A DNA stretch of 64,000 nucleotides from a virus (taxonomy: Duplodnaviria > Heunggongvirae > Uroviricota > Caudoviricetes): the IMG/VR virus record IMGVR_UViG_3300028859_000015; one strand, given 5' to 3'. The notes beneath the pieces are model-generated. The model did no database searches. It had not been told where the DNA came from and saw only the letters and a list, made by a program, of their open reading frames with translations. Positions 36,820-63,313 of the stretch are shown one piece after another. Within the stretch, counting starts at the first letter, position 1. Every line of letters begins with the position of its first letter. Both the position numbers and the translations under genes were made by a program.

Positions 36820-37477
36820 GGTATTTCTCCGTAAAAGGCCAATAATTAGGCCATATTTGAGCTGAATTGATCAAATTAGTTATTAATTACTTCCCTAATT
36901 TCAGAAGTATGGGTATATTTATTACTATTAGGCCAAAAAATAACCAAAATAGAGCCTACAGCAGATTCAGTAATAATGTCTGAGCTTGAGGCAGGACCCA
37001 TAAAAAGCGGAATATACTTTGCAGACTGAAGAACGATTTCGGAATACTGTTTATACTCACCATCATTACCTTGATTATAGGTAGGTTCTTTAGTTCCAAT
37101 TAATCGTCTCACTTGTTTATTTTCTACATCAAGTTCGTACATAGAATTTTGAGTTTTAATTAGAGTGGTCATTTTTGTTCCTCCAAGAAAAATAGCAGTC
37201 TTCTTGACTGCTATTATTAACTTAAAAACTACTACAACTACTTACAAACGAGCCTACACTCTACCACTGAATTAGACAGCCTTTGTTTAGCAATCATTTG
37301 CGCTATTAATGCTTCTTCCTCTTCTGGTGTCATCAAATCCCAATTTAGCAAGAGTTCTCCTATGGATTAACTAAAAATGGTAGCCCTAGTAGGTGCTGCC
37401 CCTACGACTTCCGACTTATAAGGTCGGCACTCTACTGTTGAGTTACAGGGCCTTCTAATCAAATTATCGGCTATTTC

Positions 37478-47373: not shown

Positions 47374-48169
47374 TATAGTTTACCAGTTAGATAGTAGCTT
47401 TTTTAATTATTCCTCTTTCTTTGGAGTAGAGGGAAACATAGCATTAACAACATCAATAACTAAACAGACAAGAGCAGTCATACCAATATTGTACACCAAT
47501 ACCCAATTAGTTAGAGGAGTATCAAATACCTTATCAAGTATCGTCAAAATAGCATACCAGATAACAAATCTACTAATATTTTTCTTTAGCATATAAAATC
47601 TCTTTCTAGAATAGGTAGAATAACAAAATTAGATTTCTCTGGATCTTTTTCAATACCGCATACATGGCATTTCATGTTTATCTCCTAGAAAATGTCCAAT
47701 TCTCAACTTCCTGTATGAATAAAAAATATATAAGGCTAATGAATCCAAAGACCCATTAGCCTTATAGTTACTTAGAGAATAGAATTTTTAGGCAGTAGAG
47801 TAAACAATGTCAAACTTCCACTAATATTAAGATGTAGATGAATTTCTCTATTTGGACATTTACTTCTCTGAGACATGGCAGAACTATAATTGATGTTGTG
47901 CTTATTACACCACAAAGCAAAACTACCAGGACCAATAGCAGTTACCGCATTTCCTTGTCTTATAAGAAATTTAGTAGTTCTCTTATGATCGCTTGGAGAT
48001 TTGACAGCAAGAATTACAGTATTATTGAGTAGCTCAAGAGTTGGAATATGTTTTGGCATAAGGCCTCCAATAGTTTACTAGAGAAAAAAGAAAAGAATGC
48101 CTCCAACAATAAATCCAACACCAACAGAGAACTAATATTTACCTTTCAAGCTATCTCCTTAAATGAAAA

Positions 48170-48222
48170 GAGCAGTAGTAGATTCAGAATATTCTATATC
48201 CCTATCTATCTTAATACTGCTC
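48170..48222. ncRNA. structured repeat element, copy A (covarying stem-loop)
   Basis: Outer stem gagcagta/tactgctc. Inner palindrome agaatattct. Conserved core gtagattcagaata...tatctatcttaata. See copy B at 52966..53018. Confidence 0.5.
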
Positions 48223-48310
48223 AACTAACAGTAATATATTATATTATAGGATTTGTTCATATAGGCTACATAACTCCTCCTTTGAGGAAGACTTTAGGTC
48301 TTCTATATAA

Positions 48311-48342
48311 ATGAAAAAAGGCTCCCTAAATTAATAGGGAGC
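48311..48342 (-). terminator. rho-independent terminator after the J-domain gene
   Basis: ggctccct-aaattaat-agggagcc with a T6 run on the minus strand. Confidence 0.65.
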
Positions 48343-48369
48343 CAGTAAGCATGGGAATATTAGATATAT

Positions 48370-48963
48370 TTAAAAATACCTACCAAAAGATTTATACCAA
48401 GGAAGCAAAGTTAATGACACATCTACAAGTGTATTTTCAAAAGTATAAGATTTATTAAAATATTCTTTTTGTATTGGATTAAGCTTTGTCTCTAAAAAAC
48501 ACAGAACAGAGTAAAATACTATTAATTCATGTGATTCATCTATAAGATCTACTGAGGTAGTAAATAAAGTCTTATAATCATAAATATTATTAATAGTAAC
48601 AATTAAAGTATTATCTAAATATACAATTTCAAATGTTTTAGCACGTCTAGATAAAGATAGGACAATATTATCTATTTTACCCTTAATACACTCTTTTACC
48701 CGCCAAATCTTATCTTCTGTCTCACTTTCTGAACTGTATGAATAGTTATTATCTTCATTAGTAGAAGTTTTCTCACATTCTTTAAAAGAAGTATTTAGCA
48801 AGAGATTTTTAGCAAGTGTAAGACCTCTAAACATTTCTACTGAACCGCCTGTATCTGGATGGCATATTAGACTCACTTTCCTAAAGGCTTCTTTAATTTG
48901 GTTGTCTGTAGGATTCTCAGATTCGTTAAATCCAAGAATAAGTAAAGCTAATTTATCAGGCAT
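48370..48963 (-). CDS. J-domain (DnaJ-like) protein
   Basis: ILGFNESENPTDNQIKEAFRKVSLICHPDTGGS: HPD tripeptide in J-domain helix II/III context. Confidence 0.75.
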   Translation of the reverse strand: MPDKLALLILGFNESENPTDNQIKEAFRKVSLICHPDTGGSVEMFRGLTLAKNLLLNTSFKECEKTSTNEDNNYSYSSESETEDKIWRVKECIKGKIDNIVLSLSRRAKTFEIVYLDNTLIVTINNIYDYKTLFTTSVDLIDESHELIVFYSVLCFLETKLNPIQKEYFNKSYTFENTLVDVSLTLLPWYKSFGRYF

Positions 48964-49493: not shown

Positions 49494-49742
49494 TTACTTA
49501 TTAGACTTGCTGTCTTTCATGCCATCATCAAATCCACGGCACCAGAACCTATATTCCCTGGTATCTGGAGCATAAGGACATTCTCTGACTTTGGTCTTTC
49601 GATATGTCTTGCCAGAGACATATCCAGACTTTGCTGCTTCAATGATGGACGGCTTTTGGTTCTTGAGCTGTTGTGGAATAAGACCAACAGCATCAATAGT
49701 GATACCAGATTTTGCAAGGGCCTGACCAAGAGCAGTGGACAT
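49494..49742 (-). CDS. hypothetical protein, homolog of 57998..58291 (SIIEAA-SGY...TREY-FWC-GFD family)
   Basis: Shares SIIEAAKSGYVSGKTYRKTKVR..PY..TREYRFWCRGFDDG with the 58-kb copy. GC about 43% vs about 27% background. Confidence 0.55.
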   Translation of the reverse strand: MSTALGQALAKSGITIDAVGLIPQQLKNQKPSIIEAAKSGYVSGKTYRKTKVRECPYAPDTREYRFWCRGFDDGMKDSKSNK

Positions 49743-52547: not shown

Positions 52548-52802
52548 TTATTCCCAAGGACAATCTATGCCTCTAACATAATTGAAAGGGTCTACCTCAA
52601 CTGATTTTCCATCTTTTACAGCAAATACAGTATTACATTTTTCACAAGTATATGGAGAATGCCTATTAACATTTACAAGAACTGATTTAGGAGCTTTTTT
52701 AAGTGAAAAAGTATCCAAATTACAGTTACCACTCTTACTCTGAAAATCTTCCCTGTGGCCACATTTAGGACAAGGTACTTTTACAGTATCATACATTCCC
52801 AT
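52548..52802 (-). CDS. zinc-ribbon protein
   Basis: CPKCGH...CEKCN. Confidence 0.45.
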   Translation of the reverse strand: MGMYDTVKVPCPKCGHREDFQSKSGNCNLDTFSLKKAPKSVLVNVNRHSPYTCEKCNTVFAVKDGKSVEVDPFNYVRGIDCPWE

Positions 52803-52965
52803 AGAGTTTCTCCTTGAGGCAATAAAAGTGAAGGTTATTCAGGCGATACCTTCAAACGCTTATCGAGGGCACCAGTAGTTTTTTTAAGAGAAACTACAAA
52901 CTCCTGGAGAAGATGCTGGTAGACTCAGGCACTACCCATATCTATCCTCATAGCATCTAAATAGT

Positions 52966-53018
52966 AGTGCTAGTAGATTCAGAATAGTTTTTCTATTCCT
53001 ATCTATCTTAATAGCACT
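52966..53018. ncRNA. structured repeat element, copy B
   Basis: Outer stem agtgcta/tagcact: three base pairs changed relative to copy A, all compensatory. Inner stem gaatag-ttttt-ctattc. Same conserved core. Confidence 0.5.
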
Positions 53019-53031
53019 CTATCAAATCAGC

Positions 53032-53211
53032 TTAATCCAAGAGCTGTTTCAAGAGTTTAACAAATAAAAATCCCACGGCAATACCAACAATAAAAAGCCA
53101 ATAATTATGAATTACAACACTAGGGAACTGTTTATACATTACATCATTCCAACCAAGCATAAGAATATAAAGAAGAAACATACCAAGAATAATGGAAATA
53201 ATTTGTTTCAT
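53032..53211 (-). CDS. 59-aa membrane protein
   Basis: MKQIISIILGMFLLYILMLGW... Not in the ORF track. Confidence 0.4.
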   Translation of the reverse strand: MKQIISIILGMFLLYILMLGWNDVMYKQFPSVVIHNYWLFIVGIAVGFLFVKLLKQLLD

Positions 53212-54236: not shown

Positions 54237-54365
54237 TCAGTCCTTTCTTGTTATTCCGTTAAGTATTGATTGATTATATACTTGACTATATACTTGATTC
54301 CCTACTTGATTCCATACTTGAATACTTACTTGATTCCTTACTTGACTCCTTACTGATTTAAGCAT
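54237..54365 (-). CDS. short MLKSV-(xNQV)n repeat protein
   Basis: Same conserved start. Stop 3 nt before the next gene start. Confidence 0.4.
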   Translation of the reverse strand: MLKSVRSQVRNQVSIQVWNQVGNQVYSQVYNQSILNGITRKD

Positions 54366-54562
54366 TATTTATTCTCCTTTATTTGATTGTATACTTGATT
54401 CCATATTTGATTTAGTACTTTTTCTAATATTTGAAGATATACTTGATTCTTTATTTGATTATCTACTTGACTATATACTTGATTCCCTACTTGATTATCT
54501 ACTTGATTCCCTACTTGATTCCATACTTGAATACTTACTTGACTCTTTACTGATTTAAGCAT
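54365..54562 (-). CDS. MLKSV-(xNQV)n tandem-repeat small protein
   Basis: SD AAGGAGA. 65 aa. Confidence 0.55.
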   Translation of the reverse strand: MLKSVKSQVSIQVWNQVGNQVDNQVGNQVYSQVDNQIKNQVYLQILEKVLNQIWNQVYNQIKENK

Positions 54563-54565
54563 TAT

Positions 54566-54763
54566 TTATTCTCCTTTCAAGAGATAAGATTGTTCTTGAT
54601 TCCATATTTGATTTGGTACTTTTTCTAATATTTGAAGATATACTTGATTATTTACTTTACTCTCTACTTGATTACTTACTTGATTCCATATTTGACTCGT
54701 TACTTTGTCCTTTATTTGATGTCCCACTCTACTTCTTACTATAATAGTCTCTGATTTAAGCAT
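54566..54763 (-). CDS. MLKSE-(xNQV)n tandem-repeat small protein
   Basis: SD AGGAGA. 65 aa. Confidence 0.55.
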   Translation of the reverse strand: MLKSETIIVRSRVGHQIKDKVTSQIWNQVSNQVESKVNNQVYLQILEKVPNQIWNQEQSYLLKGE

Positions 54764-56360: not shown

Positions 56361-56600
56361 CTAGTTAGCTATTTTATTACTTACTTGATTATATACTCGT
56401 CTCAATACTTGTTCACATACTTGAATTCTTACTTGAATTCTTACTTGAATTCTTACTTGATTACTTACTTGATTCCATGCTTGATTAAATACTTGATTAA
56501 ATACTTGATTAAATACTTGATTAAATACTTGATTAAATACTTGATTCGTTACTTGGGTATATATTTGGTTATCTACTTGATTCCTTACCGATTTAAGCAT
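56361..56600 (-). CDS. MLKSV-(xNQV)n tandem-repeat small protein
   Basis: Five consecutive FNQV units. 12-nt repeats. Confidence 0.55.
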   Translation of the reverse strand: MLKSVRNQVDNQIYTQVTNQVFNQVFNQVFNQVFNQVFNQAWNQVSNQVRIQVRIQVRIQVCEQVLRRVYNQVSNKIAN

Positions 56601-57589
56601 TGTCTATAGCCTTGATGCTAGTCCACCATGCTAGACATTCTTCAACTTTATCATAAGCCAATGGACAAGTTAGATTGTATTCGCATTGGCCACATATCTT
56701 TTCAGCCAATTCATTATGTTCGTTAGTTGTTTGTTCTTTATTGTCACTCATATAATCTCCTTGTTTTGAGTTTGTTCTTAGTTAACTAGGGGATGTCCTT
56801 TATTCAGAGTTCCTAGTTGAATAAAAACAAATACTGGCCCAGGATAGTATGTTCCCAGGCCAGTATATTTTACTATTGTTCTATAATCTCTAGGTTTAGT
56901 CTCAACGTTGTGGTAGTTTTTATAAGTTGGCTTAACTACCAAACCATGGCATATATCTAACCCTGCATGTACCACCTCACAATTCCCTATATTACCCAGG
57001 CGATTAGGTAATATAGCTCAAGAAGATTGGAGTTGTATTCTTGGGGGATTTAGATATGCGGAAAATCCCCAACAACCGCTTAATTAACATGACATTGTTC
57101 ATCTTTTCTCCTATTGGTGTGGGTGCCATTTTCGATAACAGCATTCCACAATTGCTCTAGCTCTTTCAAGCTAGGACAGTTAGAAGGAGACTCATGTTTA
57201 GACACAGGCTTGTATCCATAAACAAGAGTCAGTAAGAAAAAGTTGAGGGTTTATACGATACCCACAAACGTTTATTCCCCAGTCGCTTCACAGGTTTCCC
57301 TCCACATACTGGGGTACTTCTACTATGTGAGAGTTTGAGGCTATATAGTCCACCACTATGTAGACTATTAGTAGGATACTACTGGAATATAAACAACTCC
57401 CAGCAATATGCAGCTCACAACCAGACGTGAGGGTTATTCGATACCAAACTGACCCCCTAAAAATCAATTTAATACAGCCAAGCGTATTAAACTTGGCTGA
57501 ATAAACTGATTGTATTTATTTGAGCTGTAATAGGCCTAGGAGACCTACTTGCCGTTCTTCATCTTACCGTGTGCCTTGATCTTTCCGGC

Positions 57590-57691
57590 CTTACTTTGCC
57601 CGGTCCTGGTCTTGTTCAGGCGGTCGGAAACGGTGAGTTTGTTCTTGTTCACCTTGTCGAACTTCTCAACCTTGACTTTGGCTTTGGCCAT
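57590..57691 (-). CDS. small Lys-rich basic protein (about 35 aa; a +1 shift at a C4 run would extend it to about 50 aa)
   Basis: SD AAGGAG. MAKAKVKVEKFDKVNKNKLTVSDRLNKTRTGAK*. The other frame continues QSKAGKIKAHGKMKNGK. GC-rich islet. Confidence 0.35.
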
Positions 57692-57997: not shown

Positions 57998-58291
57998 TTA
58001 ATCTTCAGAGGCATAATCCTCCGTATTGTATTCGGGCTCCTGGTGAACAAGCTTGGCATCCTGGATACCGTAATCAAAACCATGGCACCAGAACGTGTAC
58101 TCCCTGGTCGTCTTCTCGTAGGGATTGAGACGAAGCTTGAACTTCTTGTAGGTGTATCCGGCATAATACCCGGACGTGGCCGCTTCGATGATGGACCGAG
58201 GATAGCCCTTCAGCTGACGTGCCACCAGAGAAACATTGTCGATCTTCACAATGTTCTCACCTTCGATGTGGATGTTTTCAAGACCTTTCAT
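57998..58291 (-). CDS. hypothetical protein, homolog of 49494..49742
   Basis: SIIEAATSGYYAGYTYKKFKLR..PY..TREYTFWCHGFDYG. SD AGGAGA. GC about 47%. Confidence 0.55.
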   Translation of the reverse strand: MKGLENIHIEGENIVKIDNVSLVARQLKGYPRSIIEAATSGYYAGYTYKKFKLRLNPYEKTTREYTFWCHGFDYGIQDAKLVHQEPEYNTEDYASED

Positions 58292-58792: not shown

Positions 58793-58984
58793 TTAGGGTA
58801 TAATTTCTGCCCTTATTTTATTAACTACTTGATTATATACTTGATTAAACACTTGATTAAACACTTGATAGAATATTTGATTTCTTACTTGGGTATATAT
58901 TTGGTTATCTACTTGATTCCATACTTGATTCTTTACTTGGGTATATATTTGGTTATCTACTTGAGTCCTTACTGATTTAAGCAT
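58793..58984 (-). CDS. MLKSV-(xNQV)n tandem-repeat small protein
   Basis: SD AAGGGGA. 63 aa. Confidence 0.55.
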   Translation of the reverse strand: MLKSVRTQVDNQIYTQVKNQVWNQVDNQIYTQVRNQIFYQVFNQVFNQVYNQVVNKIRAEIIP

Positions 58985-62952: not shown

Positions 62953-63126
62953 ATACTAACTAATTTCTATTACCTCATAATTACTAGAAAACTCTGGGCA
63001 TTGTATTGTTATCCAGCCAATCATACTTTCTGCCGTTTGCTTCCTAGAAAATATCCAACGCTCATGAATACTATTAGGAACATATTCTCCAGATATTACG
63101 TTAAGAATAACATATTGTTTAGCCAT
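62953..63126 (-). CDS. HIPTG/EFEIIEI family member (57 aa, below track cutoff)
   Basis: MAKQYVILNVISGEYV ... NYEVIEIS. Confidence 0.45.
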
Positions 63127-63313
63127 TTACTAAATTCCATGAATCCCTACTTATATTAATATCTACTTTAATTGCCTCATATTTATCTTCGCCATATAAT
63201 AAATTAGCAAATGAAGCATATCTGTAAGCTGCTCTTTCTGTTTGCCAGTACCATTTAATACACACATCTGCTGGAACATATTGGCCCTCTAAAATACTCA
63301 GCACAGCATACAT
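63119..63313 (-). CDS. divergent family-like small protein
   Basis: SD GAAGGGG. MYAVLSILEGQYV... The track ORF extends to 63421, but that would overlap the plus-strand gene; an internal Met with a good SD is more likely. Confidence 0.4.
   Translation of the reverse strand: MYAVLSILEGQYVPADVCIKWYWQTERAAYRYASFANLLYGEDKYEAIKVDINISRDSWNLVNG

Follow-up and report, generated by a model that had tools for sequence, protein, structure and literature searches.

An intergenic RNA element with covarying stems and an invariant core, repeated in a large uncultivated phage and its relatives

A structured RNA element of ~53 nt, called here the unit, is repeated in intergenic DNA of a large uncultivated phage and of three related uncultivated phages. 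Nine copies from these four phages share one architecture on the gene-sense strand, which is the minus strand in the window (the whole stretch of 64,000 nucleotides that was analysed). A 7-bp outer stem (P1), different in sequence in nearly every copy, encloses a core that makes a bulged helix (P2), and an apical hairpin (P3), variable in stem and loop, closes the fold. The element is non-coding, it is under purifying selection as a sense-strand RNA fold and it moves between unrelated intergenic positions. As far as its sequence tells, it matches no catalogued RNA family and belongs with the orphan phage regulatory RNA motifs. The evidence is presented below, together with the functions that the element might serve.

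Copies of the unit in the window

A sequence-only reading of the window had described the element as occurring twice, at the positions of units A and B (Table 1). The coordinates and sequences of both copies were confirmed, as were their shared core (GTAGATTCAG...CTATCTATCTTAATA) and the outer stems that flank it, gagCAGta...taCTGctc in A and tagTGCta...taGCActc in B. The count itself was too low: a third copy, C, had been missed, which lies 7 nt from B and carries a third outer-stem sequence. The pattern GTAGAYTCAG-N5-30-TATCTATC finds three matches in the window against 0 expected (100 shuffles). An unfiltered search of the window with a covariance model of A, B and C scores the three copies at 58-83 bits, with E values from 1e-13 to 1e-20, and the next match in the window at 17 bits; a weak match at 63092-63163 was dropped, being located inside a coding sequence. 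No more than these three copies exist in the 64-kb window and the 10 kb beyond it (~74 kb). Within the window the unit alone is repeated, the flanks of the copies being unique. The search for further copies that the sequence-only reading had proposed thus yielded C and six copies in the three related phages.

Table 1. Positions of the unit copies, associated hairpins and neighbouring features in the window
Feature	Position	Strand	Description
J-domain gene	48370-48963	-	upstream of unit A
Intrinsic terminator	48311-48343	-	strong; 9-bp stem with 6 GC pairs, T-run; after J-domain gene
TATAAT	48242-48247	-	only promoter-like -10 between terminator and unit A; no good -35
Unit A	48170-48222	-	single copy; 82.8 bits; P1 GAGCAGU/ACUGCUC; core AUUAAGAUAGAUAGG...CUGAAUCUACU; P3 GGGAUAU-AGA-AUAUUCU
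Membrane-peptide ORF remnant	48078-48149	-	23 codons; TTG start, in-frame TAG; between unit A and 95-aa gene
95-aa gene	47772-48059	-	downstream of unit A
Unit B	52966-53018	-	first of tandem pair, type 1 'UAUUAAG'; 78.3 bits; P1 AGUGCU/AGCACU; P3 GGAAUAG-AAAAA-CUAUUCU
Unit C	52911-52958	-	second of tandem pair, type 2 'UAUGAGG...CUACC'; 58.4 bits; P1 AGAUGCU/AGCAUCU; P3 short, G.U-rich, UGGGU-AGU-GCCUG
Hairpin H	52870-52904	-	GAGUUU-GUAGUU-UCUCUUAAAAA-AACUAC-UGGUG
Hairpin T	52821-52860	-	AGCGUUU-GAAGGU-AUCGCCUGAAUA-ACCUUC, then U-tract; directly before the RBS of 52548-52802
84-aa zinc-ribbon gene	52548-52802	-	downstream of B-C-H-T; orthologues behind the same module in L102 and L223

Fold of the unit

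Reading inward from P1, a 4-nt bulge AUUA (AUGA in C) precedes P2, in which AG-A-UAGAU is paired with AUCUA-CU; this helix is made by the invariant core AUUAAGAUAGAUAGG ... CUGAAUCUAC. P2 and P3 are separated by an internal loop (A / GA) with a conserved G.U closing pair, and P3 has 3-7 bp. Altogether the interrupted helix amounts to 18-21 bp per unit, or about two helical turns. Copy A is the only one followed by a U-run. The inner stem formerly drawn for A (agaata/tattct) leaves no loop and had to be replaced by the sense-strand P3 of Table 1, which includes two G.U pairs. In 3/3 window copies the sense fold is stabler than the antisense one (-18.2, -20.4 and -17.8 versus -14.5, -19.9 and -13.6 kcal/mol for A, B and C, respectively). 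Since the P3 loops are unconserved, no apical-loop pseudoknot is indicated, and the functional surface would be made up of bulges and internal loops, as it is in operators bound by proteins.

Small ribozymes are often found in tandem in phage-like contexts, and the small size, invariant core, tandem arrangement and phage context of the unit would suit a self-cleaving ribozyme of a new class. Such an activity is highly improbable for a single rod with neither junction nor pseudoknot; Rfam ribozyme families give no match, even at E up to 10, and the nine-copy alignment shows none of the hammerhead, twister, pistol or hatchet core sequences.

Covariation and strand

For the analysis of covariation, the nine copies were aligned with MAFFT rather than fitted to the model, and the structure was given by hand. 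Paired cells account for 93%, versus 82% after shuffling and 29-50% when the partners are slid. The covariation score is 0.51 versus 0.28 for shuffles, and 0/500 shuffles reach 0.51; these values refer to nine copies from four related phages, in which the copies named E and F are close, so that part of the signal is shared ancestry. Changes on both sides affect 7/7 P1 pairs and four P2/P3 pairs. Between the orthologues B and E1, two double compensatory changes convert AGUGCU/AGCACU into AGCACU/AGUGCU, and their P3 stems differ in sequence while both remain paired. The covariation from which the sequence-only reading had started, and for which it had suggested a covariance model, therefore persists across all nine copies.

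In the hand-curated helices the sense strand has 152 Watson-Crick pairs, 16 G.U pairs, 0 A.C and 4 other mismatches. Read on the opposite strand, each of the 16 G.U pairs would become a C.A mismatch; selection has therefore acted on the fold of the sense RNA (or sense single strand) rather than on duplex DNA. In each of the four phages, all copies are oriented like the neighbouring genes, and the genes around the window copies are all on the minus strand. The compensation in P1, the 16:0 bias and the gene-sense orientation together support one half of the original proposal, that of a structured RNA or riboregulator.

Conservation of the core

No letter of the 5′ block (UAUUAAGAUAGAUAGG) or of the 3′ block (CUGAAUCUACUA) differs among A, B, E1, F1 and D1. 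The proteins common to the window phage and the phage with D1 are ~45% identical, yet the core is the same to the letter. When the window is compared with L102, a relative carrying E1 and E2, the B-C module as a whole is 71% identical and the flanking genes 77-83%. In such alignments the stems drift and the core stays frozen. The spacing between the conserved blocks is 13-25 nt depending on the copy, P3 differing in length by 2, 5 and 7 nt between copies. Because these shifts change the frame of the two blocks relative to each other on either strand, a coding explanation is excluded, and the reading of the blocks as protein-coding was rejected for both strands.

Distribution among phages

The window phage is uncultivated and large, with ~31% G+C, tRNAs, an RNA ligase, ThyX and a gene with a Phage_T4_Y00F domain; a gp25 baseplate gene lies just outside the window. 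No close cultured phage was found, and none of 50,697 phage records matched the region by megablast. The metagenomic loci L083-L086 and L203-L208 represent the same phage, at >99% identity. Three relatives carry the unit, namely L102 (SRR32070982; copies E1 and E2; neighbouring genes with the DNA identity given above), L223 (GROS21-1; copies F1 and F2) and L089, which equals L209 (Ga0265327; copies D1 and D2; shared proteins only ~45% identical to those of the window). In all three, the two copies contained in each 5.7-20 kb stretch form a tandem pair in gene-sense orientation, and the order of type 1 and type 2 within the pair is kept in all four phages.

In L089 the module sits in a gene neighbourhood different from that of the window. 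There, D1-D2 are inside a 1.3-kb stretch without called genes (L089 3277-4620, corresponding to L209 12275-13617), which also contains several more hairpins and a short basic ORF whose homologue in the window is at 57545-57691; further non-coding RNAs may be present in it. Degenerate unit-like pieces are found directly upstream of the pairs (window 53024-53039 on the minus strand, L102 3528-3543 and L089 3522-3546), with GGAUUAAGMUGAUUU before B, E1 and F1 and GUUAUUUGGAGAAUCUACC before D1. Their sequences suggest that they are remnants of further units, left by expansion and contraction of an array.

Beyond these phages the searches were negative. In IMG/VR, the exact pattern of both blocks occurs at 81 loci, all of them chance or coding matches without the outer stem, and the tandem-junction pattern at 13 loci, none of them real; the GTDB species genomes (one per species) gave one chance match. 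Sixteen loci came from a metagenome scan, and only two of them are genuine, L089 and L086, the latter belonging to the window phage itself. A candidate in L097 (23-24 bits) was rejected as it overlaps the stop codon of an 852-aa ORF on an unrelated contig. The models found no unit in 1.49 Mb of other phage DNA, including 80 IMG/VR loci encoding DUF6745 relatives (1.23 Mb) as well as L103 and L224-L228; contigs carrying P0004 end short of the intergenic region. The family is thus real but narrow, being composed of four related phages from peat or soil-type metagenomes.

Genomic context of copy A

At locus A the order is the J-domain gene, the terminator, ~70 nt, the TATAAT box, unit A, a Shine-Dalgarno sequence with a degenerate peptide ORF, and the 95-aa gene. 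The TATAAT box is not listed as a full sigma70 match; judging from its sequence and place, it may mark a promoter upstream of A. The sequence-only reading had located both copies 110-150 nt upstream of a gene. For A this stands, with 110 nt to the 95-aa gene and the degenerate 23-codon ORF in between, but B is 164 nt from the gene downstream, a distance occupied by C and two more hairpins.

L222 and L223 have an intact peptide ORF (MKKSYWFSIGVGFIVGGILFFLF in L222, MKKKYLFSIG... in L223) followed by a 94-aa gene, and lack copy A. Both have a sense codon, TGG or TTG, at the site of the window's TAG, and the ORF of the window is probably a recent pseudogene. Recoding of TAG was considered and rejected: 24/98 long ORFs end in this codon, and the additional tRNA is of type Ile(UAU) rather than a suppressor. 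The tRNA in question (37381-37452, minus strand) scores 50.8 bits with the Rfam model and is not found by ARAGORN; its anticodon loop is CUUAUAA and its T-arm, GUAGGGGCAGCACCUAC, is unusual.

The terminator, TATAAT and A of the window are replaced by three genes in L222 (86 aa, 98 aa and an uncalled 55-codon ORF) and by two in L223 (89 aa and 55 aa). Homology of the window with both restarts exactly past the 3′ arm of A.

Genomic context of copies B and C

At the second locus, B begins 13 nt past the stop codon of a 59-aa membrane-protein gene (53032-53211) and is followed by C, hairpin H, hairpin T with its U-tract, a ribosome-binding site and the zinc-ribbon gene. The neighbouring genes of this locus and of locus A are unrelated, both upstream and downstream, which fits a generic rather than gene-specific role. 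The whole B-C-H-T module is kept in L102 and L223. In these two relatives an extra 122-aa gene with its own hairpin stands ahead of the module (L102 3120-3488 compared with window 53032-52803), and in L102 a 45-aa ORF is found between hairpin T and the zinc-ribbon gene (L102 3772-3909). With these insertions, both edges of the B-C module are indel junctions.

Paralogous small genes are frequent near the units, all on the minus strand (54237-54763, 56361-56600, 58793-58984, 49494-49742 and 57998-58291). They include tandem 65-aa genes, two 'NQV'-repeat proteins and an 82/97-aa pair with a homologue in L089, and their similarity points to frequent local duplication.

The loop and flanks of hairpin H are conserved, and its stem covaries in comparison with L102 (3661-3695) and L223. 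Hairpin T has a wider distribution. Its layout, found just upstream of gene starts, consists of AGCGUUU, a 6-bp stem, the invariant loop AUCGCYUGAAUA and the return stem; 5/6 stem pairs are changed on both sides. It recurs in L102 (3716-3752), in L223 (1714-1750, there without a U-tract), in L212-L221 and in L230. Its occurrence in 10 IMG/VR loci, all without the unit motif, compares with ~1-2 expected by a rough estimate, and the fetched loci range from 29 to 48% G+C with 19 conserved nucleotides in common. A second copy in the 148-kb contig L230 has AGUG and CACU replacing AGCG and CGCU, a double change that fits pairing of the 5′ tail AGCG with the CGCU of the loop, so that T possibly forms a small pseudoknot. 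No Rfam family matches T. Copy A is accompanied by neither H nor T.

Comparison with known elements

Searched with Rfam 15, the window shows no family except tRNA that reaches its gathering score, and over the units themselves only noise (snoRNA and miRNA models) appears at E up to 10. The closest resemblance concerns hairpin H, which aligns with the 3′ hairpin of wcaG RNA (RF01761) at 24.6 bits for the window and 19.1 bits for L102, the gathering score being 42. The part of H that aligns has the arrangement GUUU-stem-UCUCUUAAAAA-stem-UGGYG (GUUUC...GUGGCG in L102). However, the first hairpin of wcaG and its 23-nt linker are absent at H, and the repeated unit has no counterpart in wcaG. Together with manA, wcaG is an orphan riboswitch candidate from T4-like cyanophages (PMC2864571). 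Like these two, the unit is a conserved structured RNA, known chiefly from metagenomic data, in the putative 5′ UTR of accessory genes in large T4-like phages; unlike them, it comes from peat or soil-type metagenomes and not from marine cyanophage.

These precedents bear on the possibility that the unit is a riboswitch-like aptamer, with the invariant bulge and internal loop as ligand pocket, cooperative or two-step control by the tandem pair, and H, T and the ribosome-binding site as expression platform. A conserved aptamer-like core of unpaired nucleotides between covarying stems, in a 5′-UTR or intercistronic position and in tandem, is what riboswitches generally show, and a terminator-like hairpin stands just before the ribosome-binding site in the window and in L102. 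A search of the window, L102 and L223 for a conserved, mutually exclusive pairing of P1 with H, T or the ribosome-binding site, as a switch with a terminator or a masked start would have, found none. T is moreover an independent motif that occurs without units in other phages and lacks the U-tract in L223, copy A has neither hairpin, the downstream genes are unrelated small ORFs, and the simple hairpin fold leaves little space for a pocket. For these reasons the aptamer is considered unlikely, even if a conserved core held between variable stems looks, taken by itself, equally like a binding site for a small molecule.

Another kind of function is illustrated by putL and putR of phage HK022, two similar ~70-nt RNAs per genome, each with two bulged stem-loops; located between an early promoter and the terminators that follow it, they work without protein factors (PMC9378689). 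As far as the tandem pairs go, the analogy is close in outline: a low number of similar copies, a sense RNA of ~70-110 nt with two bulged stem-loops, stems kept by compensation and a putative place in early transcripts before terminators. In a put-like processive antiterminator, the nascent tandem stem-loops would bind RNA polymerase and lead to terminator read-through in the early gene array. The conservation of a two-hairpin, two-subtype module in four phages agrees with this, as do the terminator-like hairpin 60 nt after B-C and the position of A downstream of the sole -10-like box, itself behind a strong terminator; RNA polymerase, being highly conserved, would also be a fitting partner for an invariant core. 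Against it, A consists of one hairpin only, B-C come after a coding region instead of a promoter, and no obvious terminator lies downstream of D1-D2. The put RNAs fold into a V-shaped two-stem structure with a triplex, whereas the units form separate closed hairpins similar to put neither in sequence nor in structural detail. Furthermore, put-like antiterminator RNAs are not known from T4-like or jumbo phages. Antiterminator function is accordingly rated as quite improbable.

Processing sites are a further comparison. Dunn and Studier reportedly described RNase III processing signals in the early mRNA of phage T7; such sites are intercistronic hairpins of about two helical turns with internal loops, and share sequence between the sites of one phage. 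The unit could likewise be a processing or 3′-stabilising site, or the source of a stable small RNA, excised for instance by RNase III or RNase E and acting as a ~55-nt decoy or sponge, e.g. against a host RNA-targeting defence. Its interrupted helix, the intercistronic location and the tandem repeats with adjoining degenerate partial copies would agree, and the copy number varies among close relatives, A being missing from L222 and L223. However, a 26-nt core that is invariant across distant phages exceeds the needs of RNase III, a free-standing small RNA gene would be bracketed by a promoter and a terminator, which the units are not, and complementarity of the core to possible trans targets elsewhere in the window is at chance level. 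This family of explanations is judged improbable.

The other half of the original proposal was a PeSL-like promoter stem-loop. PeSLs combine a simple terminator stem-loop with a sigma70-like -35/N17/-10, a Shine-Dalgarno sequence and ATG, in dozens of copies within hyperplastic regions (PMC4122927). The unit is similar in being repeated between genes, at indel junctions, in a hyperplastic region rich in small ORFs of a phage that is T4-like or jumbo: the cassette with A replaces three genes of L222, and insertions flank B-C in L102. The likeness ends there. Three helices and an invariant A/U-rich core make the unit a bulged hairpin and not a simple G+C-rich terminator stem-loop, and its G.U pairs are specific to the RNA strand, while a PeSL carries a promoter. 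On the gene strand no promoter match exists in or after any unit, still less at a conserved spacing; A is itself downstream of the only -10-like box, and B and C directly follow a stop codon, without a promoter. Copies are also few, one to three per genome (three in the window and its 10-kb extension, two in each relative stretch). The promoter half of the proposal was therefore abandoned. Sigma70 boxes and T4 middle or late boxes were looked for in the core as well, without a consistent match.

More generally, the unit might act as DNA, as a PeSL-like cassette, a mobile palindrome of REP or MITE type or a recombination site, whose hairpin would promote the shuffling of ORFs. This would account for the junctions, including the resumption of homology just after the 3′ arm of A and the insertions beside B-C, and for the other neighbourhood in L089. 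But a position at indel junctions is not specific to PeSLs and holds for many intergenic regions, and the 16 G.U against 0 A.C, unexpected for a double-stranded DNA site, largely refute the idea. Elements of REP or MITE type have conserved terminal inverted repeats, a variable interior and no strand preference. The unit is the reverse, with varying termini and an invariant interior, so that such palindromes were excluded; moreover, its flanks are not repeated. A DNA-level function is thus very improbable.

Possible mode of action

The reading that we prefer, although it remains somewhat short of probable, is that a trans-acting partner docks on the core and, by binding there, sets the fate of the downstream message. 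The module would share its transcribed strand with the early or accessory genes around it and lie either in a 5′ leader (A) or in an intercistronic spacer (B-C and the tandem pairs of the relatives). P1 and P3, free to change as long as pairing is kept, hold the invariant bulged helix between them. The partner would most likely be a phage or host protein, possibly the transcribing RNA polymerase, and its binding could act on read-through of the next hairpins or terminators, on processing or stability, or on access to the ribosome-binding site. The usual working form would be the tandem pair of two distinct subtypes; A, if it works, does so as a singleton, so that a pair would not be obligatory. 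In this small sample, no candidate binding protein was found to co-vary with the element.

A more ambitious view, which we hold unlikely, makes the unit the sensor or effector of a new class of phage regulatory RNA, either a tandem aptamer for a metabolite or infection signal or a protein-independent reprogrammer of RNA polymerase, that would act together with the putative pseudoknot T, itself an undescribed motif, in a modular control region swapped by phages between genes.

Significance

The value of the element is limited by its narrow distribution in four related phages and by the lack of a cultured host. Hairpin T, present in diverse phages of very different base composition, is possibly of broader importance than the unit. 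In large uncultivated phages, small early genes stand in long arrays, the regulation of which is almost uncharted. The element described here is compact, under clear structural selection and invariant in its core; swapped between intergenic positions and absent from the RNA family libraries, it provides a concrete handle for experiments.
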